Assembly (NCBI GenBank): GCA_963748865.1 | Contig: CAVVLE010000050.1 | Location: 148,360-212,359 of the forward strand | Direction of reading: 5' to 3' | Origin: an uncultured Acidobacteriota bacterium | GTDB taxonomy: Bacteria > Acidobacteriota > Terriglobia > Acidiferrales > UBA7541 | Length of the DNA stretch: 64,000 nucleotides | Shown: in pieces, positions 23,517 through 60,953 of the stretch | Numbering within the stretch: position 1 is the stretch's first letter | Layout of the letters: each line of letters begins with the position of its first letter | The notes under the pieces: generated by a model | What the model saw: only the letters and a program-made list of their open reading frames with translations | What the model was told of the DNA's origin: nothing | Database searches by the model: none | Made by a program: the position numbers and the translations under genes

Positions 23517-23720
23517 CTTCGAAAGGTTCTCAATGCGCTCGTCGAGCACGACGCGGATGGCCTTGAGGAACTCGACGCGCGAGTTCTCCAGGTGCTTGCG
23601 TACCTCGGATGAAACGCCGAGGCGCGTGCGAAAGAAATCCATGATTTCCAGGCACGGGCAGCGTTCTCCCGAAGCACTCTTTCGTGCAGTGTTTCTGTTC
23701 GTCTGCCGTTGCGGGCTCAT
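23481..23720 (-). CDS. hypothetical 79-aa helical protein, translationally coupled to the ArsA/Get3-like ATPase gene
   Basis: Its ATG overlaps the upstream stop as ATGA (23717-23720). I recognise no domain. The protein is charged and predicted helical (VRKHLENSRVEFLKAIRVVLDERIENLSK). Its last ~12 codons lie inside a dispersed repeat, whose second copy is at 35600..35660. Confidence 0.5.
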   Translation of the reverse strand: MSPQRQTNRNTARKSASGERCPCLEIMDFFRTRLGVSSEVRKHLENSRVEFLKAIRVVLDERIENLSKASQRGTKIAVD

Positions 23721-35660: not shown

Positions 35661-35873
35661 CTCAGAAAAAACTGGTCAGCAAGACAGCAGGAACAGATTT
35701 GCCCACCAGACCCGACTTCTTCGACCTTTTTTCAACAGCCTTGTTATGAAAAGGACCAACCAATTGTCTGTATAAGCGGAGCTTGTGTGTCTCGCCACGG
35801 CTCGGTAACCGATCAGTGCCAAGGAAATGGCCGTGAGCGACATGCCGTCAAGCCGCCGCCGGGCATTGACCGA

Positions 35874-37857: not shown

Positions 37858-40302
37858 TTAATGTTTGGCCGGCCGGACTACGTCTCCATCGAATACTACC
37901 GCGCCGTCTGAATCCACGGCCATGTTCAGATGCTCGGCCAGAAAATCAAGACGCCGCTGCCAGAAGTCCAGAATGTCCGCCGATTTGGTGAGCACGTGTC
38001 CTTCGCCCTCATAAACTCGGTATTCAGCCACTTTGTTCAAGCGTTTCAGCCCTTCAAAGATCGCGTCCGAGGGAGTCAGGTCGCCGTCGTCCGCGCCTTG
38101 TCCGATCAACAGCGGAGTTTGCACGCGATCGAAAGAGAAAAGCGGTGAGTTCTCGAGGTAGCGATCGTGAAACTCCCAAATCGTGCCGTGCATATTGCCT
38201 TGGCCGTGCTCGTAGTAACCCGTCGCACGCAAGTAGTCGGTGAATAAATCGGGATTGAGCACGGCGGCGGTAATCACGGCGGCTTTGAACCGCGTAGTCT
38301 GCGTAATGAGCGCCAGGACGCAGTAGGAACCGTAGCTCTGTCCCATGACCGCGGTGCGCTCGGGATCGGCGTATCCCTGTTGCACTGCCGCATCCACGCC
38401 AGGAATGACCGTCTTCATCAAATCCTGCATGGGCGTGCCTTCGCCGAGCGGCGTATCGGGAAAAAGAATGGCGTAGCCTCGGGTATCGAGAATGTGAAAA
38501 TCGAACTGCGGATAATCGCCCCAGAATCCGAAGCGATTTACGTAATTTGAGCCCTGCGATCCGCCGTAAACCCAGACGACGAGCGGCAAGCGGAGGCCAC
38601 GCTCATAGTTCGGCGGTAGGAGCAGCGCGCCGCGGAGTTTTTGGCCGTCCATCCCGTACCATTCGATCACTCGCGCAGTTCCCAGGGCGTAATGCTCCAT
38701 GGGTTCGTTGAGGTGGGTGGCCTGATGCGTCGCGCCGGTTTTAGTGTCGAGGATCCAGATGTCGGCGAGATGCTGCTGATCTTTTGCGACAAAAGCGATA
38801 GATGAGGCCGCGTCGGAGCCGTCCAGGCAGAACACGTCGTTGTAGGACCTGGAATCCTCGATGACCGCCGTTCCTTTTCCTGTGGCCGTGTCGAGTTTGA
38901 ATATTCCTTGTTTGCCAGCTTGTGGGTCGTGGGCTACGACCCACAAGGTTTGACCGCCGTCGGTGGACCAGAGAGTTCTACGCTCGTTGCGAGTCACGAG
39001 CGCGACAATTTTGTGTCCCGGAATTTCGCCGACGGGCACGGCCTCGCCGCTGCTGACATTAGTTTTCCAGACCTTATTTACCTGACCGGAGTCCTCATGA
39101 AGCACGCTGACTGTCTGTCCCACGGCGTAAATATTCTGTCCCGAGCGATCGAACAGAGGCGGCCATTCGCCTTCGCCATTGTTGAATGTGGGAGCATCCT
39201 TGGCGTTCGCGGCAAGAACGCGAACCGAGCCATCCGCAACATCGATGAGCGAAATGCCGCCTTTGCCCATTTGTCCGCTGGCGATATAGGCGATGGACTT
39301 GCTGTCGGGCGACCAATTCAATTCAATTCCGTAGTTGAGGAAAACATTCTCGCCAAGCTTGCTGGTTTTGCCGTCGGCGATGGAGTAGGCGAAGATTCGC
39401 CATTGTGACTGCTGCGTGTTGGAGAGAAAACCCATCAACGAGGTGTAAGCGACGTACTTGTTGTCCGGCGAAAATTCAAACCATCCCGGTTTAACTCGCG
39501 GTGCGACACGCGTGACACTTTTGTTCTCGAGATTCAGGATGGCCACATCGCCGAGCGAACGGTTGGTCCAGGCGTTGTCCTCCAAGCTGGGTGACGCGGA
39601 TGCCGGCTTCTCGTCATGCTCATTTTTTTCGCCGGCATTCTTCACGATGACCGAAGCTTGGCCGGGCTCGACCTTGGGGAATTCTCTGCCCGCAAAATTC
39701 TTGGGTATCAGCGCGTTGGCTTGTGCGAGCGTCATGCCATCCGGCAGGATCTTTGCAAGGAGCTTCCTGCCGTCGTTCGACCAGCGCAGCACTTCAAAGC
39801 CAAACATCGCCCGCGCAATCACGCCGGGGAAACGCGTAGCCTTGCCGGTGCTCTTCTCCCAAATCCAGATTCCCGCTTCACCGCCTTCATCGGAATAGAA
39901 AGCAATGCGGCTTCCGTCGGGCGACCAAATCGGAGCCCAGTTGTAACTATCGTGGCTGCCCAGAACGATCGATTCGCCGGTCTTGACATTGGTGATGCTT
40001 ACTTGCTTTTGATAATTGCCTTCCGCCAGCGGGGCGCCCGTGGATGTGAATGCCAGGCCTTCCGGCACAGTGTTTTCGGTGGACCAGGTGTAGGCGATCC
40101 ACTGACCGTCGGGTGAGAATTCGAAGGACGAACGGACGTCGTGGTCGTGCGAAGCGACCGCGATTTTGAGCGGCAAGGGCGCCGCGGATTGCTGAGCGTG
40201 CGCCGGCTTCGACAATGCGATGAGCGCGGCGAACGCGCCACACGCCATCAGCAGGAGTCCTGCTTTGCATCCGTTTTCAAATCCATTCTGGCGATTGGTC
40301 AT
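37858..40302 (-). CDS. exported S9-family serine peptidase (PD40/TolB-like propeller + prolyl-oligopeptidase-type alpha/beta hydrolase), paralog 1
   Basis: The ORF encodes 814 aa. The signal peptide reads LLLMACGAFAALIALSKPAHA. PD40-type repeats include FSPDGQWIAY, WSPDGSRIAF, FSPDNKYVAY and WSPDSKSIAY. The nucleophile is VMGQSYGSY, the Asp lies in GQGADDGDL and the His in GEGHVL. Confidence 0.85.
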   Translation of the reverse strand: MTNRQNGFENGCKAGLLLMACGAFAALIALSKPAHAQQSAAPLPLKIAVASHDHDVRSSFEFSPDGQWIAYTWSTENTVPEGLAFTSTGAPLAEGNYQKQVSITNVKTGESIVLGSHDSYNWAPIWSPDGSRIAFYSDEGGEAGIWIWEKSTGKATRFPGVIARAMFGFEVLRWSNDGRKLLAKILPDGMTLAQANALIPKNFAGREFPKVEPGQASVIVKNAGEKNEHDEKPASASPSLEDNAWTNRSLGDVAILNLENKSVTRVAPRVKPGWFEFSPDNKYVAYTSLMGFLSNTQQSQWRIFAYSIADGKTSKLGENVFLNYGIELNWSPDSKSIAYIASGQMGKGGISLIDVADGSVRVLAANAKDAPTFNNGEGEWPPLFDRSGQNIYAVGQTVSVLHEDSGQVNKVWKTNVSSGEAVPVGEIPGHKIVALVTRNERRTLWSTDGGQTLWVVAHDPQAGKQGIFKLDTATGKGTAVIEDSRSYNDVFCLDGSDAASSIAFVAKDQQHLADIWILDTKTGATHQATHLNEPMEHYALGTARVIEWYGMDGQKLRGALLLPPNYERGLRLPLVVWVYGGSQGSNYVNRFGFWGDYPQFDFHILDTRGYAILFPDTPLGEGTPMQDLMKTVIPGVDAAVQQGYADPERTAVMGQSYGSYCVLALITQTTRFKAAVITAAVLNPDLFTDYLRATGYYEHGQGNMHGTIWEFHDRYLENSPLFSFDRVQTPLLIGQGADDGDLTPSDAIFEGLKRLNKVAEYRVYEGEGHVLTKSADILDFWQRRLDFLAEHLNMAVDSDGAVVFDGDVVRPAKH

Positions 40303-40304
40303 GT

Positions 40305-42899
40305 TTATTCCCCGTCTTTCGCCTTATCGGCGTTCGTATCCGGCTTCGCTTTCGGCGCCGCCAAGAATTCATCGAACCAGGCCAAGAGCCGTTGCCACAT
40401 GTCCGCGATGTTCGCCGGACTTTCGAGCACGTGCCCTTCGCCCCAGTAGCGAACGAATTCGGCGCGCTTGCCCTGACGATAGAGAGCGTTGAAGAATTCC
40501 TCGCCCTGCTGCATGGCGACGTAATCCATATCGCCCTGCATGATCAGCAGCGGAGTATCGACGCGTTCGACATAAAAGATGGGGCTGTTTCGGAGATAGC
40601 GGCCCAAATCGTCCCAGGGAGCGCGGCCCATGCGGGCCTGGCCATTCTCGAAGAGCCACATCATGAAAATATCTTCCTGGGGAAATTCGGTGTAGCGAAG
40701 GCGCGCGTCGAATTGGCCGTAGAGGCTGAACAGATCGGAAAGTCCAGCGAGAGCGGCGGCGGCATGGAATCGATGAGTTTGGGTGATCAGGCCGTAGGTG
40801 CTGAAGCCACCGTAGCTCTGCCCCATCACGCCGACGCGGTCTGAATCGGCCATGCCCATTTCGACCACTTTATCGACCGCGGGAAGCACGCCATTGGTGA
40901 GATCGAGCATCGGATCGGAGGTCACGCCTTCAGCGGAGAGCGGCATACTCGGGAACAGTACAGCGTAACCGCGCATCGCGAAGAGCTGCATGTTCAAGGC
41001 GATCGGATCGTCCAGGCGGCTTAAAAACGGTTTGCGAGCTTCGCTCATCATGCTGCCCGCGTAGACCCAGACGATCATCGGAACCTTGGTGCCCTCTTTG
41101 TAATCGATGGGAAGAATGAGCCAGGCCTTCAGAGGCTTGCCGTCGAGTGAGCGGTAGTCGATCAATTTCAATTTGCCTTCGGCGACGCCATCGAGAAACG
41201 CATTGATGTGCACTACTTCGCCGAATTTGCCGGAATCTTCGCGGCCGGTCCAAAGCCAATCGCCACTGCGGCTGCTGCCGTTGAAAATGAGTGCTCCACC
41301 TTTTTGAGGCCGCGCCGCGAGCACTGCGAACTCTGCAGGCTTCGCTATTGGTTTCAATTCTGAGCTCGAGAGATTTAGTCGGTAGAGCGAGGGCCATTCG
41401 CCTTCGCCGGCGCCGACGATGATGTCGGCCGTCCCGATAGCCTCGGGAGTGTTTTCCTTCGGCCAGACGATTGAACTTATTTTTTCATTTGCCTTCGGCG
41501 TCAAATCCTGCGGGGTTCCATCGACCGGAATGCGCCAAACGTGGCCATCCGCTACGCCGACGAACGTGTCCAGTCCGGCCTCGGCCATCAGCTGGCCGGG
41601 AACCCGTTCGTCTTTCAGTGACTCCGTGATATTTCGAGGTTTACTGCCTGGCGAAACCAGCCACCAATCCGATCGCTTCGCATCGTGACGTTTCGCATAG
41701 AGCAGCAGCGAATTGCGGGAGGACCAGGCAAATGGCGCGGCGTTAGCGCCTTGCACGCGGGCTTGGGACATCGCGGTCTGCAACCCCTCGCCAACCCGCT
41801 CGCACTCTCCGGCGGCGATGCGGCAAAGGAGAGTTACAGCACCGCCTTCAGCCGCGTCGGCCGGATCTTGTGCGAGCGCCAAATGGCTGCCATCCTCCGA
41901 CCATTTAAGCGAGCCCTGCAGAATGTACTTTGCCTTGCCCAGGTCTTCGCTGACGAGATTGCCGCCGCGGTCGAAAATTTTCAGTGAATACTGGCCGGGA
42001 ACCGCCCACGGCAAATGGCCCTTCGCGGGCGTAGAGAAATTCGTCTCCTGAAGAAGCGCGACGTACTTCCGGTCTGGAGAAGAGGTCAGATCGGAGAACG
42101 CCGGCGCTTCGATGAGAGTCTTCGCACTATTCTCCGCATTCTGAACATCAATGAGGATCAACCTGTCCTGAGGATGCTTAGCCACTTCGGAAGGAACGCC
42201 GCTTTCCAGAACGCTGGGAGTGGCTTCCTCGCCCTTCCAGCTCTTGGCCCATTTCTTCATTGCAATCTCGCCTGTCTGCATCTCGACGGACATGCTCATG
42301 GGCCGCTCGTTTTCGGGCAGCGCGATAGCAATGAGCTCGTGATTCGAGATCCAAACAAAAGAATGCGCGCCAATCAGCTCAACTCCGCCGCTCGTGAGCC
42401 TTCGCGGCTCGCCGCCACCCGGCTCGCAGACCCACAGGCGCACGTTTCGCTCTCCGTCGCCGCGCGTGGAGACGAATGCGATGTATTTGCCGTCGGGCGA
42501 CCAAACCGGAGACCAAGCACCCGAGCCATCGCTGGCGCCGTCGGTCAGTTTCCTGGGGGTTCCGCCGGTGGTAGGCACGACGTAGAGATCCGATCGGTCG
42601 CCGCCACCAAGAAACGGCTCCTGATGAAAATTGCCGGCCTTCGGCCGCTGAATCGTATAAGCGAACCATGATCCATCCGGTGATATCACACCGACATTTC
42701 CAAATCCGTCGCCTAACGATTCCAATTTTGAAAGGTCGGCCGGAGTCAGCGGGCGCAGCTTTTCATCGCTGCGCGGCGACTGGCCCTTCGCCGGTGATAC
42801 GAACAAAACAGTCAAGGCAATCACGGCGACGACATGCTCAACCTGCCTGGTGAACTGATCTGCGACCATTCGTACCCCCGGAAGAAACAGCGGCCACAC
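40305..42899 (-). CDS. exported S9-family serine peptidase, paralog 2
   Basis: The ORF encodes 864 aa, with a possible alternative start at 42869 (MVADQF...). PD40 repeats include ISPDGSWFAY, WSPDGKYIAF and SSPDRKYVAL. The nucleophile is VMGQSYGGF, the Asp lies in MQGDMDYV and the His in GEGHVL. It begins 2 nt upstream of paralog 1. Confidence 0.85.
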   Translation of the reverse strand: MWPLFLPGVRMVADQFTRQVEHVVAVIALTVLFVSPAKGQSPRSDEKLRPLTPADLSKLESLGDGFGNVGVISPDGSWFAYTIQRPKAGNFHQEPFLGGGDRSDLYVVPTTGGTPRKLTDGASDGSGAWSPVWSPDGKYIAFVSTRGDGERNVRLWVCEPGGGEPRRLTSGGVELIGAHSFVWISNHELIAIALPENERPMSMSVEMQTGEIAMKKWAKSWKGEEATPSVLESGVPSEVAKHPQDRLILIDVQNAENSAKTLIEAPAFSDLTSSPDRKYVALLQETNFSTPAKGHLPWAVPGQYSLKIFDRGGNLVSEDLGKAKYILQGSLKWSEDGSHLALAQDPADAAEGGAVTLLCRIAAGECERVGEGLQTAMSQARVQGANAAPFAWSSRNSLLLYAKRHDAKRSDWWLVSPGSKPRNITESLKDERVPGQLMAEAGLDTFVGVADGHVWRIPVDGTPQDLTPKANEKISSIVWPKENTPEAIGTADIIVGAGEGEWPSLYRLNLSSSELKPIAKPAEFAVLAARPQKGGALIFNGSSRSGDWLWTGREDSGKFGEVVHINAFLDGVAEGKLKLIDYRSLDGKPLKAWLILPIDYKEGTKVPMIVWVYAGSMMSEARKPFLSRLDDPIALNMQLFAMRGYAVLFPSMPLSAEGVTSDPMLDLTNGVLPAVDKVVEMGMADSDRVGVMGQSYGGFSTYGLITQTHRFHAAAALAGLSDLFSLYGQFDARLRYTEFPQEDIFMMWLFENGQARMGRAPWDDLGRYLRNSPIFYVERVDTPLLIMQGDMDYVAMQQGEEFFNALYRQGKRAEFVRYWGEGHVLESPANIADMWQRLLAWFDEFLAAPKAKPDTNADKAKDGE

Positions 42900-42942
42900 C
42901 GATTCGGTGGCAAACGTCTCGCGCGGCCTTCTTGTCGCCGGC

Positions 42943-45417
42943 TTATTTCTGATCGCTAGTTACCGACGTTGCTTGCAGGTGCTTATCGAACCAGTCGAGC
43001 ACTCGATTCCAGTAATCCTGGACGTTCGGCATGCCCCAGGTTCCTTCCCAGTGGTCTTCGCCCGCGTAGTTCGCGTACGTGACTTCTTTGTTGAGCCGGC
43101 GCAAGGCCACAAAGACTGCGTCGGCCTGCTGGCGCGGTACAGCGTTATCCAACCCTCCCTGGATAATCAGCAGCGGGGTCTGGACGCGATCGAGATAGTA
43201 GAAGGGCGAATTTTCGATGTAGCGATCGCGGTATTGCCAAGGCGTGCCGCCCATTCTTCCCTGGCCGGTCTCGGCCCAACCGATGGCCCAGCTCGAGCCT
43301 TTCTCGTCCATGATCGCGTAATCGCTGATCAGGTCTCCGGGACCCGCGCTATCCACGGCTGCTTTGAAACGGGTGGTCTGCACGATGAGAGACAGCGTCG
43401 AATAGCCGCCGTAACTGTGGCCCATAACGCCCAATCGGTCTGGATCGGCAATGCCAAGCTCAATGGCACGATTGACTGCCGGAATTACCGTCTTGAGCAG
43501 GTCCGACATTGGATTGTTTCCGTGCATCGGCGTATCGGGCAGCAGGGCTGCGTAGCCGCGAGTGGCCAAGATTTGCAAGTTCTCGACGCCCGCGCCGGAA
43601 AGTCCGAAGCGGAACACCGTCTCCGAACGGTACGAGCCGCCATACGGATCGACAATCAGCGGGTACTTCTTGCCTTCCTGATAGTTCGCAGGAAGAAGCA
43701 GGGCGCCATGGAGATGCTCGCCATCGACGCTGTAGTAGTCGATCACCTGAGCCTTGCCAAACGTGATGCTGTCCAGGCTTTTGTTAATGGACGAGACCCG
43801 CTTTGGATCTTTGAAATCCGGACTACTAGCCCAAATGTCTTCGGGATGCTGCGCATCCTGGGAGACGAACACGATCGTTTTCTTGTCGCTGCTGATATCG
43901 ACGCCGAAAATCATGTCGCGGCCGAAGTAAATACTGCGCTCGAGGAGCTTGGTCGCTTTGCCGGTGGAAACGTTCAGGCTGTAGAAGCCTTCGTTCTTGG
44001 TCGCTTCGCCGCGCGCGCCGACGATGAGAGAGTCGCCGCCGAACAACTCCGCTTTGCCGCCGATGGACGGTGAGACGATTTCCAGGACAACGCGGTCTGG
44101 AATCACGCCGGCTACCGAGAAGTTGTGTTCAGCAACGGACGCTTTCCAGACTTTGTCTGTGCCGAGCCGCCCGTAGTTTTCCGAGCTGATCAGATAAAGA
44201 TACTTTCCGGCGGAGTCCCATAACGGGGCACGATGCTCGTCGCTGAACGGCGGATGATCACCGGGCGTAAGCAGTTGCGGCGTGCCACCGGCGGCCGAGA
44301 CAACATAGCAATCGCCTTTGGTCAACGGCCCTGCAGTCAGGTAGGCCAGCGATTTGCTATCAGGCGCCCAGCTAATCGAAATTCCGTATTCCTGCGCAAG
44401 GTCGGGGACAACAGTCTTGGTCGATCCGTCAGCAAACGAGTAGGTTCGCAGTTCGTAGGTGGTTTGCTGGGTGTTTTCCTTGGTACCCTTCCAGTGAGTG
44501 TAGGCCAGCGTTTTGCCGTCCGGCGAAACCCAATACCCGAGCGGCCGGACAGCCTTGACGATGTGTTCCGACTTGCCGCTCTTGACGTCAAAAAGAGTGA
44601 GGTCGGCGAGATAACGATTCATCCAGGGCTCTTCAAGCGGTTGCTTCTCCGGTTTTGCCCCACTGCTACTCGCCGAGGATGAGCCCGGCGTGGACGGAAC
44701 AAAACTTAAAACAGTTGCGGTGACTCCGGGAGGTGCGTCTGGCTTTTTGTCTCCGTCATCCTTCTTAACTGGTCCATATAGTAGATCGGCGGCCTGTTCG
44801 ACCGTCTGGCCCGCCGGCAAAGTCTTGGCGATCAGGTTCTGACTGTCTGGGGTCCATCGCGCGACTTGAAAATTGAAAAATGGGCGGACCACATCGTCGG
44901 AGAGCTGGCGCATTTGATTCGAATTCTTCTCCCAGACCCAAAGATGTGCGGTGCCGCTACGGTCTGAATAGAACGCGAGGTATCTGCCGTCCGGCGACCA
45001 TACCGGAGCCCAGCTTGTTCCTTGTCCTTCGGTCAGATTGCGCGATTCTTTCGTTGCAGTATTGGTGATCCAGACGTCGCATCCGAGAGCTTCGGTGAAG
45101 GCGCCGGTGGGCGAATAGGCGCTGTAGCGCTCGCTGCCCGTCGTTTTCCGCTTGCTGTTGTCTTCTACCGTGTACGCCACCCACGCGCCATCGGGCGAGA
45201 GTGCCAAATACGTCCGGTTCGAGAGGTCCAACACCGTCATGGCCTGCTCGACGCTCAGAGGTGGACTCTGTGTGCCTTTCGCGGCCTTGTCTTGCGGCGC
45301 ACCTGCCGTAACAGTCGCGAGAAGCAGTACGGCCAATGCACAGCAAGTCGCGCCAAGCCCAGCGCCGACCGGTCCGTTCAGCTTCATTCTGTCTCGATTA
45401 GACACTGTCGTATTCAC
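42943..45417 (-). CDS. exported S9-family serine peptidase, paralog 3
   Basis: The ORF encodes 824 aa and has a signal peptide. PD40 repeats include LSPDGAWVAY, WSPDGRYLAF, VSPDGKTLAY and WAPDSKSLAY. The nucleophile is VMGHSYGGY, the Asp lies in IQGGLDNAV and the His in GEDHWE. Confidence 0.85.
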   Translation of the reverse strand: MNTTVSNRDRMKLNGPVGAGLGATCCALAVLLLATVTAGAPQDKAAKGTQSPPLSVEQAMTVLDLSNRTYLALSPDGAWVAYTVEDNSKRKTTGSERYSAYSPTGAFTEALGCDVWITNTATKESRNLTEGQGTSWAPVWSPDGRYLAFYSDRSGTAHLWVWEKNSNQMRQLSDDVVRPFFNFQVARWTPDSQNLIAKTLPAGQTVEQAADLLYGPVKKDDGDKKPDAPPGVTATVLSFVPSTPGSSSASSSGAKPEKQPLEEPWMNRYLADLTLFDVKSGKSEHIVKAVRPLGYWVSPDGKTLAYTHWKGTKENTQQTTYELRTYSFADGSTKTVVPDLAQEYGISISWAPDSKSLAYLTAGPLTKGDCYVVSAAGGTPQLLTPGDHPPFSDEHRAPLWDSAGKYLYLISSENYGRLGTDKVWKASVAEHNFSVAGVIPDRVVLEIVSPSIGGKAELFGGDSLIVGARGEATKNEGFYSLNVSTGKATKLLERSIYFGRDMIFGVDISSDKKTIVFVSQDAQHPEDIWASSPDFKDPKRVSSINKSLDSITFGKAQVIDYYSVDGEHLHGALLLPANYQEGKKYPLIVDPYGGSYRSETVFRFGLSGAGVENLQILATRGYAALLPDTPMHGNNPMSDLLKTVIPAVNRAIELGIADPDRLGVMGHSYGGYSTLSLIVQTTRFKAAVDSAGPGDLISDYAIMDEKGSSWAIGWAETGQGRMGGTPWQYRDRYIENSPFYYLDRVQTPLLIIQGGLDNAVPRQQADAVFVALRRLNKEVTYANYAGEDHWEGTWGMPNVQDYWNRVLDWFDKHLQATSVTSDQK

Positions 45418-45522
45418 GAGCGCCTCCCTTGGAACGCACTTCGACCGGTCCAGCGGTTCGCGGATCGTTTCTAATTCTGCAGCGAGGCAACGGCTTTCGC
45501 AGGAACCCTTTCGCGCTAAGTG

Positions 45523-47790: not shown

Positions 47791-47800
47791 ATCGGCCCCA

Positions 47801-50800: not shown

Positions 50801-51226
50801 ATCGGAGATGGTCGTCGTGGTATTCGGATTGCCTGTTTCTATTAGCTGTGCTTCCGCTTTCACATTAATTTCGGTGTTCACAGATCCGACTTGCAGACGG
50901 AAGTCGACGCGCGCGCTGTGATCGATGGCCACTGTAACGCCCTCGCGGGTTACAGTTTGAAATCCCTGCGCTCTTACCGTAAGTAGATACGTTCCCGGAG
51001 GCAATAGAGGGAGTGAATAGTATCCATCGGCGTTGCTCTTCGTCTCCCGCTGTATACCGGTGTTCCTGCTCACTGCTAAGATGCCGGCGTTCGGGACAGC
51101 CGCATTCAAAGCATCCGTAATAACGCCGCTGATCTCAGCGGTCGTTTGATTCTGTGCCAGTGCCGATGCACGTCCGCTGAACAAAACCACCAGAAGCAGC
51201 AATATACGCACCGACGAGCGCCCCAT
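47801..51226 (-). CDS. TonB-dependent outer membrane receptor with an N-terminal carboxypeptidase-regulatory-like domain
   Basis: The ORF encodes 1,141 aa. The signal peptide is ILLLLVVLFSGRASALA. The CarboxypepD_reg region reads SGVITDALNAAVPNAGILAVS...ADGYYSLPLLPPGTYLLTVRAQGF. A plug region (ISDRDLQNLPNPG) and a long beta-barrel follow, ending in the aromatic terminus ...ALRAGFEF. No FecA-type N-terminal signalling extension is visible. Confidence 0.85.
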   Translation of the reverse strand: MGRSSVRILLLLVVLFSGRASALAQNQTTAEISGVITDALNAAVPNAGILAVSRNTGIQRETKSNADGYYSLPLLPPGTYLLTVRAQGFQTVTREGVTVAIDHSARVDFRLQVGSVNTEINVKAEAQLIETGNPNTTTTISDRDLQNLPNPGQDLTYVANVAPGAIMNVNSASGYNGGNVEFNGLPSIANDFTIDGLDANDAWQSINRSGASGLMLGLNSVQEASVNTESYSADLGRLGASQVNYITKSGTNTFHGNAYEIWNGSSMNATNYFINANPVPTKKPFSNTNEFGGNFGGPILKDKLFFFTDVEAIRIVLPQLLSAIVPSSAFQTYVLQQLPIGNQVDPASGVLLPPQPGEVPLYTTLFGLVGTPSGTPIALPGCPIGANADGCAIQRLFSASPPVSETLWTLKLDYSLSPKDSFWFRFQLNRGTNVRVDAVNPVFNTVDNEPEEEASADWTHVFGSSLVNQFNPGISYQDRVHNLADPAKAHQLPVASLPEFGMSSIGGVLGNIPYGDRTTTWQLNDNLSWTVRRHTFKFGENLRRVLFSSAESEGYAVTPYVYQCSLAEFIYGAACESFQAFPTYGVDHLRGVGLDLYAMDTYKVRSNLTVTLGVRASWNSNPVSQENVLARLVTPFADLNHDVNTPLNQAILGNQHKMFASTPLLVWQPRAAIAWQVRPKTVVRVGAGVFTNPVMGFLPSYLDENAPSDVFFEGGIFGPVGGLAIAPGVPNSVVDNAVAANAAFQSGFSSGALSCSSPGAGSNCIPQLSFTSFESKRQKFPMFYQWSLGIDQELGANFLFSIKYVGTHASDMFYSDSPNGYQVVCAGCWKNYAFGAPPDARFGNIFPFETGVGSSYNAMQANLTKRFGHGLSFQVNYTYSHCLDYISNGGVEIFNENENFDAYNGDVRQLYGNCDFDVRHSLNGSYVYSLPFKSSNSALNQAIGGWQVSGTVFIRGGFPFSVFSTSPSGFVNAFPTVFANKDSGQSLYEKEPISGVTQPGSIQWVNPNAFTSVINPVDFSCYPATGPTTCQNGDAGRNTLRAPGFKWTDFDVTKRFTLHERFGLRFDVQFYNLFNHPNFGFPNGAGGFPGNGAAGIPGIPSTLAGFGNINTTVGPSTGLLGSGLGGDSSVRMIALRAGFEF

Positions 51227-51238
51227 TTTCGTATCCCC

Positions 51239-53107
51239 CTATCGTTCGGCTGGTTCGTTTCCGGTCAGAAAATTTCCGCTCACTTCCCGGCTGATGTTAG
51301 GCAGCACCTCTATGAGTTTTTGAATCGTGTCGTTCAGCTCCTGAACTTTGCAGTCCACGTTTTGGGAATTCTGCGATCCCGCAAGCAACAACGTAGTGTC
51401 GTCCTGCACCTTCTCGAGACACGCAAAAGCTGCCTTGGTGCTCGACCTCCAGTCCTCGCCCGAACAGCTAATGGCGTACACCCCGACTTCCGGAGCGTGG
51501 GGCGGCAAAACTTGTTTGAGCAGTTCGGATTCCGCCTCAATTTCCTCCCACATCGCGGCCACGTGATCGCGAACAAGAAGACTGAGCATCTGCCGCGTGG
51601 AAGGATCCAGCTGCGCGACGGCATCCGGTGAGTAGCGTTCCCTCAAGCGACGAACCGCCCAAGCATGCGCCATCGCAGACTGCGCGGCTTCGAGGGTCGA
51701 GTCGACGAACGTCTTGCGCGCATCTGCATCGGGAAATTTCGTCTTCAGCGTGAACTTCAGCAGAGGCTCGTCCGCGACGACCACCGGCGCATCCTCGATG
51801 AGATCTTTCTCGGAGTCAGCGGCATCCACGTTGGCATCGGATGTAAGGCCGTCGCCTGCAACCGCCAGACTGGCGTGGACATCTCGAATGCCACGAAGCT
51901 CAGACTCAATTTCTCTCTTTCTGATCTCAGACGGGAGCACACCCTGCACAATTACCGCATTCGCGTCGCCGCGCTGGATATTAATTTGATCTCCCAAGTC
52001 GGCTCTTACCGAGTGCAAGGCCACGCGCGCCAGCATCTCGGCCGTCTGCAGTTCGTTCTCGTTGGGTACGTGAATGGCTGCCGTCGGCGGAAGAATGGGC
52101 TTCCCCACCGGCTCAGGTTGAGCGCCCTCGTTCAGAGCAAAAATATTCGAATCGATCACGTTCATGCTGAAGACTTCGAAAAATGACTCGGTAATCCGCA
52201 CCAGGCTTGAATCCCTGAAATGGATGTCTTCCGCAACGGGGTGGAAGTCCGACCCTCGAAAAGTGAATCGAAGCTCGGCGACTGATCCGCTTGGGATTGT
52301 GGAACGAATTGAAACCAGCCCGGGATCACTGCCGTCAACGCGCTCCGCGGATTGCGGATGCAAATCTTGCCAACGTTTGAATGAATCGATCGAGAGTGGG
52401 TTCGACCAATCGAGCCCGGCCTCGTCGAACGTGTGCTTCAAGCGTTCGGACGGGAAACCAGACTGCCCGGTGTCGATATCGGTTCTGCCTTCCACCAGTC
52501 TGTTCGCAATAGGATCAGAATAAATCGCCCGATCCATCGTCGCCCAACGCGACGGCTCAACCGAAGTCTCAGTTATTTGAATTTCGAACTTTTGGTAGAT
52601 CACGGGCCGGGGAACGCTTGTCACCAATTGCCTCTGGGCATTGGTAGACTTGCGCACCAGTTCGTCCGCTGAAACGACCGCCGGAGACCGGAAGGTCCTG
52701 ATCAGCAATGCGAAAATGCATACCATCGCGATCGCGGCTGTCCACGCCGGCCTTCGTGGCACGCCTCTCAAAAAATCAAACAGTCCCGTCAGCCGGGCCC
52801 ACGGAGAAGGCCGGCGCCCTTTCTCCGCCAGTTGGTGCAAGCTCTTCAAGAATCTGGTCTGCCCTTGCTCCGAAGGTGGATACTTTTCGCGAATCAAAAG
52901 ATTGCTGTATTCAACGACTCCGTTTATCGACTCATTGATCTGTTCGAGGCGCGCCCGGCAAGTCCAGCACGCCTCCAGATGAAGCCGCACCTCGTTTGCG
53001 TCGTGCGCGTTTAGTTCCCCGTCCACTGAGAGCAAGAGCAGCTTGTCGGAAAGATGAGCGTCAATCGACTCGTCTTTTTTCCCGAACAAAGAATTTCTCT
53101 TATTCAT
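51239..53107 (-). CDS. transmembrane anti-sigma factor (zf-HC2/ZAS motif) with a large extracytoplasmic domain of unknown function
   Basis: The ORF encodes 622 aa. The N-terminal H-x3-C-x2-C motif is HLEACWTCRARLEQ. A single TM segment (AWTAAIAMVCIFALLI) lies near residue 125. The remaining ~470 aa contain no domain I recognise. The gene starts 67 nt downstream of the ECF sigma gene. Confidence 0.75.
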   Translation of the reverse strand: MNKRNSLFGKKDESIDAHLSDKLLLLSVDGELNAHDANEVRLHLEACWTCRARLEQINESINGVVEYSNLLIREKYPPSEQGQTRFLKSLHQLAEKGRRPSPWARLTGLFDFLRGVPRRPAWTAAIAMVCIFALLIRTFRSPAVVSADELVRKSTNAQRQLVTSVPRPVIYQKFEIQITETSVEPSRWATMDRAIYSDPIANRLVEGRTDIDTGQSGFPSERLKHTFDEAGLDWSNPLSIDSFKRWQDLHPQSAERVDGSDPGLVSIRSTIPSGSVAELRFTFRGSDFHPVAEDIHFRDSSLVRITESFFEVFSMNVIDSNIFALNEGAQPEPVGKPILPPTAAIHVPNENELQTAEMLARVALHSVRADLGDQINIQRGDANAVIVQGVLPSEIRKREIESELRGIRDVHASLAVAGDGLTSDANVDAADSEKDLIEDAPVVVADEPLLKFTLKTKFPDADARKTFVDSTLEAAQSAMAHAWAVRRLRERYSPDAVAQLDPSTRQMLSLLVRDHVAAMWEEIEAESELLKQVLPPHAPEVGVYAISCSGEDWRSSTKAAFACLEKVQDDTTLLLAGSQNSQNVDCKVQELNDTIQKLIEVLPNISREVSGNFLTGNEPAER

Positions 53108-53174
53108 TCGTTTTTCCGTTGTCCCCGGCGACCCTGCTGCTCTTCGGTCCGGAGCGACGCAACACGTCGCAGTG

Positions 53175-53738
53175 CTAGCAGTGCCGCTCTGGTGCTAGCT
53201 TCACCACTGCGCGCCGCAGCGATTCAGCCACCGTGGGAACCGACAAGCCCAAGATTTCCGCGATTTCTCGATACCGAAATCCTTCAATCCGTAGGTGAAC
53301 ACACTGCTGCTGCAAGCGTGACAGCCTTCCAAGAGTTTCGTGAATGTGGCTCATCTTTTCTTTGTCCAGGAGTTGCTCTTCCGGCCCTGGATGCGGATCC
53401 TCGCGCGTTTGCAACATGCTGTCCCACTGCTCCGGCGTCATGCACGTCAGGTACTTGCGCGCTCTTAGTTTGTTTACCGCCAGGTTGTGCGCGACTCGAA
53501 AAACCCAGCCACGAATGTTCTCAATTCCCCGGCGGCCGCTAAGTTGCTCGAACAAGCGCAGAAACGTCTCCTGAATCAACTCATCCGCTTCTTCGGGAGT
53601 GACGTGAATGCCCACCAGGTAGCGGTACATCGGGATCCGCAGTTGGCTAAAGCACTCAATAACTTGGTCTTCGATTTTGTGGGCAGAAGGGCAGCGCACG
53701 CCCGTCACGGCCGCGGGCATAAGACAGTCGGGGCCCAC
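53175..53738 (-). CDS. ECF-type RNA polymerase sigma-70 family factor
   Basis: The ORF encodes 187 aa. Region 2 reads EADELIQETFLRLFEQL...WVFRVAHNLAVNKLR. The region 4 HTH reads LSRLQQQCVHLRIEGFRYREIAEILGLSVPTVAESLRRAVVKL. Confidence 0.85.
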   Translation of the reverse strand: MGPDCLMPAAVTGVRCPSAHKIEDQVIECFSQLRIPMYRYLVGIHVTPEEADELIQETFLRLFEQLSGRRGIENIRGWVFRVAHNLAVNKLRARKYLTCMTPEQWDSMLQTREDPHPGPEEQLLDKEKMSHIHETLGRLSRLQQQCVHLRIEGFRYREIAEILGLSVPTVAESLRRAVVKLAPERHC

Positions 53739-54242
53739 AGCAGCTTGGGTCGCCAGGTTAAGGCCTATCGGTCCCGTTTTACTGATGACACGCCCCTACG
53801 AGCCCTCCGCATTTACTTGCGATCGCCTGGCAAATCTATGCGGTGCTCGTATGCTACAAACTGACAATCGGTGGCTGTGTTTTTACGACAGCACGCTCGA
53901 AAAATAAATGAATTTCTCAAAAAATTCTCTCTCTGTGTATATTCGCCGGACCTACGCGCAGCTTTTGTCATAAAAAAGTTGTCGCGATTGTCTTCATCCG
54001 TGAATGCCTGCTTCGAGATTCAGCAGCAGGGGTGTATGGCAGCGAGGAGCTCCGGCCTCTAGGAAAATCTCACGAGCTGGGCAGCGAATTGCACCGGCAG
54101 CAACGCGCGGCCGTTCGGAAATCGCCTGCTCACTTTTGTAGTGCGTTCGATCTGCGAGACTTACTTGCTATCGTCGGAGTCAATTGTTGCAGCAACCGCG
54201 ACTATCGCAATCCGCGGTTCGGCAGCGCCAGGAGGTCCCAAA

Positions 54243-57200
54243 ATGCAATTCCGCCGCTCTCCCCGGCTGATGAGAACTGTGTGGATGGTCACAGTACTTA
54301 CCTCCGGAGTTTCGCTTCTGTTCGGCCTCGAATCTCGGTGCACCCCGTTGCGCGCCGGCGAACCCGCGCGCCACGACCGCATGTACAAGCATGCCCGGAT
54401 GTTGATCGCCTTGGCGAAGGTACGAAATGAAAAGGACGCCGTCGTCCTGGTGGCCTCGCGGCCAGGCCAGAACGCCGCAGCCGTGGCGGAGTTCACCAAG
54501 CTAGGCGGCGAAGTTCACTACCGCGCTGACGATGTGGACTACTTTCGCGGACGCCTGCCGGTGGATCAAATTCTGGCCTTTGCCGGCTCCCCGCTCGTCG
54601 AGAGTTTCGACCTCGACGTGAACATTGACCGCTTCGATCCGACCGTAGATTTTCCCGAGCCGCCCGAGCTGCCATCCTCAGGACCTTCAGATCCCGACAC
54701 GCCGCTCAGCCACCCGTATCTGCCAGAAAAAGACATGGATATCACAGATATGCAGGCCGCCCACCCCACCTACGACGGCCGCGGAGTGGGCATGGCCATC
54801 CTGGACGCTACGCCGGACATGCTCGTACCCGAGCTGCAATCGGCCACATCCCTCGATGGCCAGCCCATCCGCAAGATTTCCGAACTACTCTCCGTCACCG
54901 ACCCGCGCGACGACGTCGATCCCATGTGGGTGAAGATGGACCGCGTGGTGCAAGCCGCCGGTCAAAAGTTCGAAGTCGATGGAGTCATCTACGTGGCGCC
55001 CGCCGACGGTGAGTTTCGCTTCGGAATCTTCAACGAGCGCGATCTGAAGAATCCTGCCTACCTGCATAAGGACGTCAACTTCGACGGAAACCCCGAAGGC
55101 AGCAGTGGTTTATTTGCAGTGCTCTGGGACGAAAAGGCCAACACTGTTTGGGTTGACACTGATCAGGATCACAGTTTCCAGAACGAGCGCGCCTTGCAGG
55201 ATTACGCGCGCAAGGGCGACATCGGGATTTTCGGGAAAAATCAGCCGCCCGCCGCGCGGCGCCACACCGTGGGCTTCGCCGTACAAACCAACCCGGAGCT
55301 GCATTATGTGCGCCTCAACCTTGGTGTCTGGCAACATGTGACGGAGGTTTCGGGAGCGACGCTGGGAAAGGGTTTCTACGGCCACGCTTATAACGGCATC
55401 GCAAGCGAAGCCACTTTCGTAAGTTATTTCAGTAGCGACAATTCCATGTACCGCCGGGTGGAAGCGGTTATCGAGGCAGCCCGCAATCCCAAGGTTGACG
55501 TTATATGTCTTGAGCCGGCGGTGGTCGACGACGTGACCAGCCCGCTCCACGATGGCACGCTGGTCGCCGGAGTAATTTTCGACCGCGTCACCGAAAAATA
55601 CAAAAAGCCGCTACTCTCTCCCGCGAACAATACTTTTGGCATGACCACAGTTCTCGACGAAGTTTCGAGTCATGGAATCCTTGCCGTTGGCGCATACCAG
55701 GCAGGCGAGGCTTACAAGATCAACAATGGCGCCGATGTCGCCGAGCACGACAATCTCCACTTGGTCGGCTCGTTCGGACCCGCAGGTAATGGCGCTCTCA
55801 AGCCGGACATCATTAGCCCATCGGAGCTGATCAGCACGGATTGTGGCTACAAACCTCCGGAAAAAGTTAAGGGCGTTTACGAGCTGCCTCCGGGCTACTC
55901 CGTCGCTGGCGGGACGTCCACCGCAGGGCCTTCTGCCACAGCGGCGATGGCGCTGCTTGTGAGTGCCGCGAAGCAGGCGAAAATTAAATACGATGCCGAA
56001 CGTCTGCGCGTTGCCGTGATTTCCACTGCCAGATTCGTCCCCAGATTCCAGGCGTACGAGCAGGGTAACGGGCTTGTGCAAGTCAACGCGGCCTGGAAAA
56101 TGCTTCAGGAACTCGACAAAAAGTGGGACCCGGTAACCATTAAGAGCAGCGCGCCGGTGAAGACCGAAACGGCTGCTTATCTCGATCCGCCATTCGAAGG
56201 CCCTGGGATCTTCGAGAGAGAAGGCTGGACGGCCGGGCAGAGTGCGACACGAAACGTGACCTTCACGCGCACTTCCGGCGGCGCATCGCCCATGACCTTC
56301 GATGTGCAATGGGTGGGGAACAATGGCGCGTTTGAATCCGCTTCGATCATCTCCTTGCCCCTGAATAAGCCGGTCGAGTTCCCGATTAAGATCCAGACCA
56401 AAGACCCCGGTGTGTACAGCGCCATCCTGAATCTTCGTCGTGCCAGCTATCCGGGCATCGCCTATCAAATTCTGAATACGGTAGTCGCCGCGAGCGCCTT
56501 CAATCCCAAAAACAATTTCACAATTGAGGACAAATTCAGCGCCCCGCGCCCGGGAACGGAGAGCCGCTTTTACTATGTTCCCGCCGGAACGTCCGCGCTC
56601 CGCGTGCATCTCACGATTCCCAACGCCAAGCCAACCATCCGCGTTTCCGCGTTCGCCCCCGATCGAAATGCGGATCTGGCGTGGGATTACGTCGGAGTCA
56701 CGGATAAGGGCACGCTCGACAAGATAATTCTCAATCCCGTCCCAGGCGTCTGGGAAATCGAGCTGTGGGACAACAACTTCGTCTTCCAACCCGAGCAGAT
56801 CGATTCGAATCCGCTGGCGCCGGTGCCGGCCGATCTCACCGTTTCACTGCTCGGCTTCAGCGCTTCTCCCGATGCCGTGAATCACTCGGCCTCAGCCGAT
56901 GGCAAATCGCATGCGGACCAACTGAAGTTCTCTAATTCCTTTGCTCCGATCGATGCGAAATCGAGCTCTTTCCCTCTTGGCAGCGAGTTCCAAATCTCCA
57001 AAACCATTTCGCCGGGAGAAATGCAAATCACGGAGCTCGAGATTCCCGAAGGCACCGCGCGGCTCGAAGCCAGCATCGGCCACGCTTCCGATCCACATGC
57101 CGATCTGGATCTCTATCTTTATCTGGAGACGAAAGGCACGATGGTCCTGAGGGGCCGTTCGGATTCCACATCCTCAAATGAGGCCGTCGTTATCGATCAT

Positions 57201-57551
57201 CCTGCCGCTGGCAGGTGGAAAGTCGTCGTTGACGCGTTTCGGGCGCCCGGCGGTTCGGTCGAATACAAATACCGTGACGTATATTTCCACCCGGCGTTCG
57301 GCTCGGTCTCGATCGATGACAAAGATCAACTGCGAAATCGCAACGACAGTTGGGATGTTTCCGCCGACGTGCAAGTCCGAGCGATGCCTGTGGGCGAGCG
57401 CACTCTTACAGGAATTGCCCCGGTAGTCGCTGCCGCGAAATCTGGCGATCCTGTGCCATCCCGCCCGGAGACGCCGCTGGCAACCGGGTCTGCAGGTTCA
57501 GCTCCCGTCGAAGTGGTAATTGGGGAGTCTCGCGTGAAGCTTAAGGAATGA
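54243..57551 (+). CDS. secreted S8 subtilase with tripeptidyl-peptidase-II-like architecture and a C-terminal PPC-like domain
   Basis: The ATG at 54243 is preceded by AGGAGG 8 nt upstream, and the signal peptide is MVTVLTSGVSLLFGL. The catalytic Asp lies in HPTYDGRGVGMAILDAT (codon at 54804). The His lies in WQHVTEVSGA (55335), about 177 aa later. The oxyanion Asn lies in SPANNTFG and the Ser in AGGTSTAGPSATAAMALL (55917). Several blocks resemble human TPP2 from memory: P.YDGRGV..A.LD, V.WD....W.D...D, GTS...P and QG.G..QV. The C-terminal HADLDLYLY is PPC-like. Confidence 0.8.
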   Translation: MQFRRSPRLMRTVWMVTVLTSGVSLLFGLESRCTPLRAGEPARHDRMYKHARMLIALAKVRNEKDAVVLVASRPGQNAAAVAEFTKLGGEVHYRADDVDYFRGRLPVDQILAFAGSPLVESFDLDVNIDRFDPTVDFPEPPELPSSGPSDPDTPLSHPYLPEKDMDITDMQAAHPTYDGRGVGMAILDATPDMLVPELQSATSLDGQPIRKISELLSVTDPRDDVDPMWVKMDRVVQAAGQKFEVDGVIYVAPADGEFRFGIFNERDLKNPAYLHKDVNFDGNPEGSSGLFAVLWDEKANTVWVDTDQDHSFQNERALQDYARKGDIGIFGKNQPPAARRHTVGFAVQTNPELHYVRLNLGVWQHVTEVSGATLGKGFYGHAYNGIASEATFVSYFSSDNSMYRRVEAVIEAARNPKVDVICLEPAVVDDVTSPLHDGTLVAGVIFDRVTEKYKKPLLSPANNTFGMTTVLDEVSSHGILAVGAYQAGEAYKINNGADVAEHDNLHLVGSFGPAGNGALKPDIISPSELISTDCGYKPPEKVKGVYELPPGYSVAGGTSTAGPSATAAMALLVSAAKQAKIKYDAERLRVAVISTARFVPRFQAYEQGNGLVQVNAAWKMLQELDKKWDPVTIKSSAPVKTETAAYLDPPFEGPGIFEREGWTAGQSATRNVTFTRTSGGASPMTFDVQWVGNNGAFESASIISLPLNKPVEFPIKIQTKDPGVYSAILNLRRASYPGIAYQILNTVVAASAFNPKNNFTIEDKFSAPRPGTESRFYYVPAGTSALRVHLTIPNAKPTIRVSAFAPDRNADLAWDYVGVTDKGTLDKIILNPVPGVWEIELWDNNFVFQPEQIDSNPLAPVPADLTVSLLGFSASPDAVNHSASADGKSHADQLKFSNSFAPIDAKSSSFPLGSEFQISKTISPGEMQITELEIPEGTARLEASIGHASDPHADLDLYLYLETKGTMVLRGRSDSTSSNEAVVIDHPAAGRWKVVVDAFRAPGGSVEYKYRDVYFHPAFGSVSIDDKDQLRNRNDSWDVSADVQVRAMPVGERTLTGIAPVVAAAKSGDPVPSRPETPLATGSAGSAPVEVVIGESRVKLKE

Positions 57552-57669
57552 CGAACTGCACCGGTAGAAAGCAGGTCGCGCCGCTCGCCTAATACTGTGG
57601 GACCGGCGATTTTGAGGTCTTCTGAGCGAAGAGTTTTAGGAAGGAACCTAACCCGTCGAATGCAAAGGA

Positions 57670-57809
57670 ATGGCGGAGCAGCCAGTCACGACTGAATCCC
57701 TATCCACGAGAATGGTCGAATCCTTCAGGGGCCTGCGGTTATAGACTCCCTGATCAGTTCCCTGTAATTCACTGTTCGAATAGTCAGGCAAATTCCCCGT
57801 CGTGCTTAT
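57670..57809. repeat. dispersed mosaic repeat family 2, copy B
   Basis: It shares the two direct blocks with copy A (25221..25415). It lacks about 60 nt between them and carries the 63-nt module (57747..57809) in the opposite orientation. Confidence 0.8.
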
Positions 57810-58335
57810 CAAACAGGCCGACAAGTGGCGTTGTTGAATTTTCTTGGGAAAGCTTCGTCGCAGCGCGCAGTCTAAGCCCTTTTACGCGTCTTACACCACG
57901 CCGAGTGCCGACGCACTTTTTAGAAACAATTGAATCGCAGTCTCAAAATCATGTGATATTGGGTAGCGGAATTTGCAAATTTGCAGTGCGTGGTCAATCA
58001 CTTACAGCTCAGGCGTGGCATAGGTTATTGGGCAGGTTTTCGAACGTAAGCGAACTCCTCGCGATCGTGTGGGCCAATAGGCGGGGGCGTCCTGCAATGT
58101 ATCGAGCACCCGGATCATTCTCAACTCCCTGGGAACGGCACAGCTCATAAGAACGGCAGTGAGGTCGCCAACCATTCACACGTTACGCCGCATCGCACCG
58201 CACGAGTAACTCGGTCCGAAGGATCTGAATCGCGATGACGAATGGCGGGGGTCCCTATCGAGTCAGAGCGAAGCAAAATTGTCTCGACATACTGTATAGT
58301 TTGACAACGTATTAGCTAATGTTAGAAGGTCTTGA

Positions 58336-60950: not shown

Positions 60951-60953
60951 GGA

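Follow-up and report, generated by a model that had tools for sequence, protein, structure and literature searches.

We analysed a window of 64,000 nt from an uncultured soil Acidobacteriota bacterium (UBA7541, contig CAVVLE010000050.1; all coordinates below are window positions). In this window, genes for an extracytoplasmic function (ECF) sigma factor, an anti-sigma factor, a TonB-dependent transporter (TBDT) and four S9 peptidases are arranged in one direction, and a gene for an S8 subtilase is divergent from them. Together with a gene for a BNR/Asp-box propeller these genes form a real, conserved functional module and not a chance arrangement, given that they occur together in seven or more further lineages of Acidobacteriota. 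On balance, and with modest confidence, we read the locus as an ECF-controlled regulon for peptide import and stepwise degradation. Most likely it is a protein-directed variant of the known transporter-plus-enzyme nutrient loci and not a new kind of system.

Open reading frames (ORFs) were taken from a six-frame list and domains from Pfam and NCBIfam profile scans. All genes of the locus are on the minus strand, except those of the S8 subtilase and the BNR propeller, which are on the plus strand. The minus-strand genes encode the sigma factor (53738-53175, 187 aa), the anti-sigma factor (53107-51239, 622 aa), the TBDT (51226-47801, 1141 aa) and the peptidases S9a (47790-45523, 755 aa, directly downstream of the transporter), S9b (45417-42943, 824 aa), S9c (42899-40305, 864 aa) and S9d (40302-37858, 814 aa). 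From sigma to S9d the gaps between them are 67, 12, 10, 105, 43 and 2 nt. A previous sequence-only reading of this DNA had described seven co-directional genes from 53738 down to 37858. The ORFs are exactly as it described them, its gaps are reproduced from the coordinates, and its order of sigma, anti-sigma, TBDT and four S9 genes is confirmed by the Pfam and NCBIfam domains. Its boundary, in contrast, has to be moved, as the BNR-propeller gene (35874..37808, plus strand, ~644 aa), which is convergent on S9d, belongs to the locus too. The ORF of this gene opens at 35649, with ATG 35874 as the likely start. For S8, the ORF begins with GTG 54141; ATG 54243 has the sequence AGGAGG 8 nt upstream and is the likely start, and therefore the S8 gene (54243..57551, plus strand) would encode 1102 aa and the spacer between the divergent sigma and S8 genes would be 504 bp. 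Terminator-like sites inside the operon are not in excess over chance, nor are the hits of a sigma-70 promoter scan, and no stable RNA structure is predicted for the 105-nt gap between S9a and S9b (z = +1.46). The GC content is even across the locus and its flanks, and because of this uniformity there is no compositional sign of foreign origin for the locus.

Related loci, designated here by L numbers, were collected from nine matches to the anti-sigma factor in a word-indexed search and from a scan of GTDB; all are in metagenome-assembled genomes of Acidobacteriota. The common layout is an S8 gene divergent from sigma, anti-sigma, TBDT, S9a, S9b and S9c. The set of sigma, anti-sigma, TBDT, S9a, an S9b-type peptidase and S8, with or without BNR, was found in L001, L003, L005, L007, L013, L017 and L018; it is important to note that the L013 contig ends inside the TBDT gene, and the S9 genes of L013 are out of view. 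Absence of synteny in related genomes had been named in the sequence-only reading as an objection to it, and this objection falls, as the arrangement recurs in independent lineages. Where identity of the anti-sigma factor is only 49-58%, that of the enzymes and the transporter is 64-84%, and among the lineages keeping the gene set the anti-sigma factor goes down to 33%. Orthologues of the TBDT are 65-94% identical, those of S9b 70-95% (L001, L003, L005, L007, L017 and L018), those of S9c 64-91% (L001, L003, L005, L007 and L017), and those of S8, always located within the module, 52-96%. L017 contains orthologues of all four S9 peptidases in the same order (64-71% identity), including S9d in the same position (65%). 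S9a is always beside the transporter. Gene order is not constant: L013 has S8, BNR, BNR, sigma, anti-sigma and TBDT in one direction, and L018 has sigma, anti-sigma, TBDT, BNR, S9a, BNR, S8 and S9b. Most loci have the S8 gene divergent from the operon; in L013 it is the first operon gene, and in L018 it lies within the operon. The survival of the gene set through such reshuffling speaks strongly for a functional coupling of the genes. In most relatives a fifth S9 gene follows S8 (L001 3266-5565, L003 3250-5692, L007 3136-5421, L017 1-230). It is intact in L007 and L017 and is split into propeller and catalytic ORFs in L001/L002 and L003/L004, the split being repeated in independent assemblies. 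Neither a copy nor a remnant of the fifth S9 was found in the window, the region 57552-58335 downstream of S8 included, where there is no convincing ORF.

A shared promoter-like motif links the units of the locus. When the divergent spacer was aligned across five lineages, two conserved blocks, mutually reverse-complementary, were found in a sequence that has otherwise diverged. The motif, TGTCATAAAAA-N9-10-RTTGTC (27-28 nt), precedes both the sigma operon (53863..53890, minus strand, TGTCGTAAAAACACAGCCACCGATTGTC) and the S8 gene (53966..53992, plus strand, TGTCATAAAAAAGTTGTCGCGATTGTC). The pattern TGTCNTAAAA-N9-14-TTGTC has exactly two copies in the 64-kb window with 0 expected. A relaxed pattern occurs three times, as compared to 0.13 expected from 200 Markov simulations, and each of the three copies is upstream of a gene of the locus, in the right orientation; the third one (35742..35768, plus strand, TGTTATGAAAAGGACCAACCAATTGTC) starts 132 nt before the start codon of BNR. 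The spacing of 16-17 nt between TGTCAT and TTGTC corresponds to promoter geometry. The sigma-facing copy is in the same position in L001, L003, L005, L007, L017 and L018, and the divergent pair is also found in L001/L002, L005, L007 and L017, with a variant S8-facing form in L003. There is one copy in L018, upstream of sigma, and one in L013, directly upstream of S8, which is the first gene of the S8-BNR-BNR-sigma-anti-sigma-TBDT operon. The motif travels with the units of the locus through rearrangements. We infer that it is the ECF promoter, under autoregulation, and that three units of the window are co-regulated. Between the divergent motifs lies a conserved A/T-rich core of 75 bp (53891-53965; ATTTATTTTTCG, GAGAAATTCATTT), which contains a sigma-70-like match, TTCTCA-18-TATATT, at 53914-53943. 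This core could serve as an UP element or as a basal promoter, or a regulator might bind there.

In the regulon that we propose, the ECF sigma factor would be held at the inner membrane by an anti-sigma factor of the zinc-binding anti-sigma (ZAS) type with a LolA/RseB-like ligand-binding domain, and a periplasmic or envelope signal would release it. Freed sigma would transcribe the three motif-sharing units, namely sigma/anti-sigma/TBDT/S9a-d, S8 and BNR. The transporter, of the Oar class, would carry oligopeptides across the outer membrane, and the exported, propeller-gated S9 peptidases would trim them to sizes suitable for inner-membrane carriers encoded elsewhere. The S8 enzyme, which resembles tripeptidyl peptidase II (TPPII), might work together with the S9 enzymes or outside the cell. 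Import by the transporter, a peptide substrate, the locations of the enzymes and the sensing of a signal are all steps that we infer. All parts look intact: Ser, acid and His in the S9 peptidases, the tetrad in S8, and N-terminal export signals on the enzymes and on the transporter. A comparable division of labour is known from Porphyromonas gingivalis, where RagAB imports 7-29-mer peptides and periplasmic S9 exopeptidases trim them (PMC8048996).

Several observations weigh against this proposal. Genes for an inner-membrane peptide permease and for TonB-ExbBD were not found in the locus. The Plug domain of the TBDT (residues 134-237) scores 19.1 bits, which is under the Pfam cut-off of 23.9, and the Oar class has one characterised member, which exports a subtilisin-like protease (PMC6434023). 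The closest relatives of S9a with known function cleave one specific lasso isopeptide bond and not general peptides. S9b and S9c score 36.9 and 33.8 bits, respectively, on the model of BD-FAE esterases (cut-off 26.8), and the BNR propeller could point to glycoconjugates. The promoter-like motif is a putative binding site of the sigma factor.

Regarding the enzymes, all four S9 proteins match Peptidase_S9 (PF00326) with 72-93 bits (cut-off 22.6), and each has PD40 repeats. The nucleophile motifs are GWSYG in S9a, GHSYG in S9b and GQSYG in S9c and S9d, the acid and the His are aligned, and the acid of the triad is Asp in S9b-d and Glu in S9a. By these features all four belong to peptidase family S9, with catalytic Ser, acid and His behind a beta-propeller. 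By inspection, each has a variable hydrophobic N-terminal stretch ahead of the conserved mature sequence, so an export signal, as the sequence-only reading had claimed for every S9 peptidase, is seen in four out of four. S9b and S9d are 36% identical over the full length, and S9c is 38-39% identical to S9b and S9d in the catalytic domain only. S9a has 25-28% identity to the other three. Thus the description of the four as paralogues holds for family, propeller and GxSYG motif, but S9a is not a simple paralogue. On the NCBIfam model lasso_peptidase (NF033523) it scores 347.8 bits, under the equivalog cut-off of 400, as compared to 113-151 bits for S9b, S9c and S9d. Its best matches in the PDB are the lasso isopeptidase AtxE2 (5txc, 177 bits) and then 5jrk, which carries a generic S9 name in the PDB and which we take to be the sphingopyxin I isopeptidase. 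Identity to AtxE2 is limited to the catalytic domain. The Glu that replaces the canonical S9 Asp in S9a aligns with the residue that is presumably the catalytic Glu610 of AtxE2. Ser586, Glu669 and His697 of S9a are invariant in eleven orthologues, and the S9a orthogroup is discrete (62-100% identity within it, next relatives at most 29%). The triad of lasso isopeptidases is given as 'Ser-His-Glu/Asp' in a review (PMC9266682). S9a is an AtxE2-like, i.e. lasso-isopeptidase-like, Ser-Glu-His enzyme, and among the enzymes of the locus it is the nearest to a characterised one. S9b and S9c are best matched by 8wt1, an S9 peptidase of uncharacterised type that is cited together with AARE structures; S9c also matches a plant glutamyl endopeptidase. 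In the PDB, DPP4 of P. gingivalis (2d5l and the entries related to it) matches S9a only distantly. The labels tripeptidyl, dipeptidyl and oligopeptidase that had been put on these enzymes are therefore not borne out: S9b and S9c are nearest to 8wt1 and to glutamyl-endopeptidase-like enzymes, S9a is nearest to lasso isopeptidases, and the match of the S8 protein to TPPII is 34 bits.

The properties of S9a lead to another explanation, in which the locus would break down or recycle one particular peptide that resists proteases, such as a lasso peptide or another ribosomally synthesised and post-translationally modified peptide, a metallophore of cyclic or peptidic nature, or a peptide antibiotic. 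The TBDT would import the compound, S9a would open it, and the other peptidases would finish the linear product. The score of S9a on the lasso-isopeptidase model, its best solved relatives, the Glu kept in its triad and its invariable position next to the transporter all fit this explanation. Moreover, lasso-isopeptidase clusters always contain an S9 isopeptidase, a TBDT and a sigma/anti-sigma pair (PMC9266682). However, S9a stays under the cut-off of that model, and its likeness to AtxE2 does not extend beyond the catalytic domain. Genes for a lasso cyclase, a leader peptidase or a PqqD-like protein were not found among the large ORFs scanned in the window, nor among the called genes and the larger ORFs of those related loci that were inspected; the search for small precursor ORFs was not exhaustive. 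The regulators in lasso clusters are FecI/FecR-like, those of this locus are not, and four further general-looking peptidases would be superfluous for one compound. We consider this explanation unlikely.

The S8 protein matches Peptidase_S8 (PF00082) with 39.5 bits (cut-off 21.8) and has a PPC domain near the C-terminus. D188, H365, N463 and S559 are invariant in six orthologues, and the protein is accordingly a genuine subtilase with the Asp/His/Asn/Ser tetrad intact. It begins with a hydrophobic, signal-like stretch, as judged by inspection. The insertion between Asp and His is 177 aa long. In TPPII the distance between these residues is ~228 aa, with the Asp placed by our own reading of the alignment, and in subtilisin it is ~32 aa. 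The best solved match is TPPII (3lxu), which is weak: 26 bits in the sequence search and 34 bits (E 5e-8) in the profile search, in the His-to-Ser region. The sequence-only reading had placed a secreted TPPII-type S8 peptidase of ~1,100 aa across a spacer of ~500 bp. Size, spacer and S8 family agree with our results, but the match to TPPII is weak.

The TBDT starts with a signal peptide, followed by a CarboxypepD_reg domain (PF13620, 77.9 bits, residues 32-112), and its barrel is of the OMP_b-brl_4 type (PF25183, 482.5 bits, residues 246-1112). An STN domain (PF07660) was not matched in Pfam, and there is no unassigned stretch long enough for one. After the N-terminal extension a TonB-box-like segment, TEINVKA, was noticed by inspection only. 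A sequence search of the PDB with the TBDT gave no match. The Oar subclass has been defined by a CarboxypepD_reg N-terminal extension, distinct from STN (PMC6434023). Because this extension is present and STN is absent, the transporter would be assigned to the Oar subclass by the published definition. A second CarboxypepD_reg TBDT (1218 aa, ~30% identical to the transporter of the locus) was observed after the peptidase operon in L018, at 20831-22190.

Oar architecture raises the possibility that the transporter works in the opposite direction, exporting S8 and perhaps the S9 peptidases to the surface or medium, and that the locus encodes an extracellular protease battery. In line with such secretion, the transporter has the CarboxypepD_reg extension without STN, and its gene is linked without exception to that of a large subtilase; the subtilase carries a PPC domain, as is typical of secreted proteases, and no secretion system other than the transporter is encoded in the locus. 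The protease exported by Oar, PopC, carries no signal peptide (PMC6434023), whereas the enzymes of this locus have one. The substrates of propeller-gated S9 peptidases are short peptides, in keeping with a role in the periplasm. It is also important to consider sister triads, in which sigma, an anti-sigma factor of the same family and a CarboxypepD_reg TBDT carry different cargo: tannases, esterases, FAD oxidoreductases and glyoxalases in L014, an aldehyde dehydrogenase in L009, a nitroreductase in L010 and an S9 peptidase in L016. These four loci came from an exhaustive profile search for the anti-sigma family. Aldehyde dehydrogenase, FAD oxidoreductases, glyoxalases and nitroreductase are cytoplasmic-type enzymes, which points to import, and the varied catabolic cargo as a whole therefore favours import over export for the transporter. 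Export through the TBDT is in our opinion rather improbable. The triad itself looks like a reusable, modular sensing-and-uptake cassette of Acidobacteriota.

The BNR protein matches BNR_2 with 42 bits and has six Asp-boxes and a signal-like N-terminus; no NCBIfam assignment was found for it. Its orthologue in L018 (63% identity) is inside the operon between S9a and S8, and the L013 homologues (30% identity) are between S8 and sigma. Because of these positions inside operons, and because the gene has its own relaxed copy of the motif, the BNR propeller is a newly recognised member of the module. According to profile searches, its likeness to the propellers of sialidases (GH33) and GH74 is at the repeat level only. 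This likeness, the BD-FAE scores of S9b and S9c and weak PHA-depolymerase and PETase-like matches among the S9 proteins would be expected if the substrate were not protein, i.e. if S9-fold esterases or amidases and a BNR glycosidase acted on a glycoconjugate, a polyester or a cell-wall or exopolysaccharide polymer. We regard this as very unlikely. The Peptidase_S9 scores are far higher than the BD-FAE ones, the module always includes a genuine subtilase whose tetrad is intact, the sialidase FRIP motif was not seen by eye in the BNR translation, and no carbohydrate-active enzyme (CAZyme) families were detected in the scans of the locus genes and window ORFs.

The sigma factor has Sigma70_r2 and Sigma70_r4_2 domains and scores 76.2 bits on the NCBIfam model sigma70-ECF (TIGR02937, cut-off 42.9). 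At the N-terminus of the anti-sigma factor the zf-HC2 match is weak (17.3 bits, under the Pfam cut-off of 22.2). The HxxxCxxC motif (H43, C47, C50) is invariant in 67 family members, and by this motif in the N-terminal domain the protein would be ZAS-type. A single transmembrane helix at about 118-139 is followed by ~480 periplasmic residues without a Pfam or NCBIfam match; specifically, no FecR domain was matched in either database. A PDB profile search with the anti-sigma factor gave a marginal match to RsiW and nothing else. An AlphaFold2 model built on an alignment of 10 sequences was unusable (pLDDT 53.7), and the one built on 67 sequences had a pLDDT of 84.5. The predicted periplasmic part consists of a LolA/RseB-like domain (~147-315), followed by an alpha-beta-beta-alpha-beta domain (350-416) and then by a helical bundle (451-609). 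In Foldseek the top match of the first periplasmic domain of the model was LolA (E 2.7e-6); MucB and RseB were also matched. The nine matches of the word-indexed search suggested a tiny family, and this was overturned by an exhaustive profile search, which gave 3,281 representative clusters at E <1e-3 and 683 at <1e-30, mostly full-length. The predicted LolA/MucB/RseB-like fold and the PD40/Tricorn-type propellers of the peptidases might also belong to envelope quality control, where the sensor detects mislocalised lipoproteins or lipids and the peptidases clear damaged periplasmic proteins, but this has very little probability, as sigma and anti-sigma are tightly and repeatedly linked to a TBDT and varied catabolic enzymes and the expanded anti-sigma family fits substrate-specific sensors better than one stress system. 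Regarding the spacer between the sigma and anti-sigma genes (53108-53174), it is 67 nt here and ~70 nt in the 94% sibling L005. In L001, L003 and L017 sigma and anti-sigma are separated by 4 nt or overlap, so this spacer is specific to this lineage.

The peptide regulon that we favour can be compared with several known systems. The sequence-only reading had called the locus the proteolytic analogue of the polysaccharide utilisation loci (PULs) of Bacteroidota, and had added that no characterised system of this composition was known. The common logic of regulator, TonB transporter and hydrolases is upheld, also because the cassette is reused beside other catabolic sets; the enzyme specificities that went with the analogy are not. 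The second statement was too strong, as lasso-isopeptidase clusters (PMC9266682), the RagAB/DPP system of P. gingivalis (PMC8048996) and Oar/PopC (PMC6434023) are precedents. With PULs the locus shares an ECF sigma factor, a membrane anti-sigma factor, a CarboxypepD_reg-type TBDT, an exported hydrolase battery and modular reuse. It differs from them in having no SusD partner and no STN, in its ZAS/LolA anti-sigma factor, which is not FecR-like, in its cargo of serine peptidases instead of CAZymes, and in the phylum, Acidobacteriota. No SusD-family match was found in any gene of the locus or of the related loci, and the transporter gene is followed by S9a. With neither a SusD-like gene nor CAZyme cargo, the locus was rejected as a SusCD system.

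Protein nutrition of P. gingivalis, with gingipains, RagAB and the peptidases DPP4, DPP5, PTP-A and AOP, is similar in the proposed physiology, i.e. import through a TBDT and periplasmic trimming by S9 enzymes (PMC8048996). It is different in that RagA is SusC-type and works with the lipoprotein RagB, and the extracellular endopeptidases are cysteine gingipains and not S8 enzymes. Sequence kinship to the P. gingivalis enzymes closer than family S9 was not found. The genes of the P. gingivalis pathway are scattered and are not known to form one sigma-controlled locus. The lasso-isopeptidase clusters (AtxE2, SpI-IsoP) resemble the locus in having an AtxE2-type Ser-Glu-His S9 enzyme beside a TBDT and a sigma/anti-sigma pair. 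Unlike them, the locus has no lasso biosynthetic genes and no GntR regulator, its regulators do not resemble FecI/FecR, S9a falls short of the family cut-off, and the locus encodes four further peptidases as well as a BNR propeller. Oar of Myxococcus xanthus has the same CarboxypepD_reg extension, plug and barrel without STN, and is likewise connected to a subtilisin-family protease, PopC. The oar gene was chosen as a TBDT gene clustered with a complete Ton system, and Oar exports PopC (PMC6434023). Whereas PopC carries none, the S8 protein has a signal peptide; the S8 gene is linked to that of the transporter, and the context of the sister cassettes favours import.

The last comparison is with FecIRA, whose cell-surface signalling the sequence-only reading had cited for triads of sigma, anti-sigma and TonB receptor. 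An ECF sigma factor, a transmembrane anti-sigma factor and a TBDT are co-encoded in both cases, probably with autoregulation. But the two domains that define FecIRA signalling are missing, STN from the transporter and FecR from the anti-sigma factor; the sensor domain is LolA/RseB-like, and the cargo consists of peptidases and not of iron-uptake genes. The analogy was accordingly abandoned, and membership in FecIRA was rejected, the ECF sigma factor being the only one found of the three features that were checked. In the literature, of which our coverage is incomplete, we found nothing specific on an Acidobacteriota sigma/anti-sigma/TBDT/peptidase locus or on a 'peptide utilisation locus'. The regulatory cassette is more novel than the peptidase battery. 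It is possible, although we hold this only tentatively, that sigma, the ZAS/LolA anti-sigma factor and an Oar-class TBDT make up an undescribed trans-envelope signalling cassette free of STN and FecR, which is present in many copies and used in the manner of PULs, and that the locus described here is its peptide version.

Acidobacteriota are among the most abundant soil bacteria and are rich in peptidases and TBDTs. To our knowledge, next to no information exists on their sensing and uptake of substrates. The locus offers a conserved and testable unit for protein or peptide turnover: its regulator is defined, a candidate motif for the promoter is at hand, and it encodes one transporter along with six exported proteins. 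The large anti-sigma family with a LolA/RseB-like sensor is repeatedly paired with transporters lacking STN, and if it signals transporter occupancy or the imported ligand, it would be a second way of coupling uptake to transcription besides Fec/STN. In addition, an AtxE2-like hydrolase outside a lasso cluster may help to explain the transporters and sigma/anti-sigma pairs in lasso-isopeptidase clusters.

Some other features of the window should be mentioned. Downstream of S8, three tandem genes for HlyD-family membrane-fusion proteins (450, 421 and 438 aa) are followed by a gene for a MacB/FtsX-type permease (58336-63568, plus strand). They were considered as members of the locus and rejected, as the relatives carry other genes there, and they are probably unrelated to it. 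An ORF of 2444 aa at 5751-13085 (minus strand) has NHL/lactonase-type propeller repeats, Big_3_5 and Ig-like domains of the Cep192/ASH/HYDIN type. An ArsA-type ATPase with a C-terminal HSP20-like domain is encoded at 23717-24907 (minus strand), and a 945-aa fused 2Fe-2S/molybdopterin oxidoreductase of the xanthine-dehydrogenase family at 26844-29681 (plus strand).

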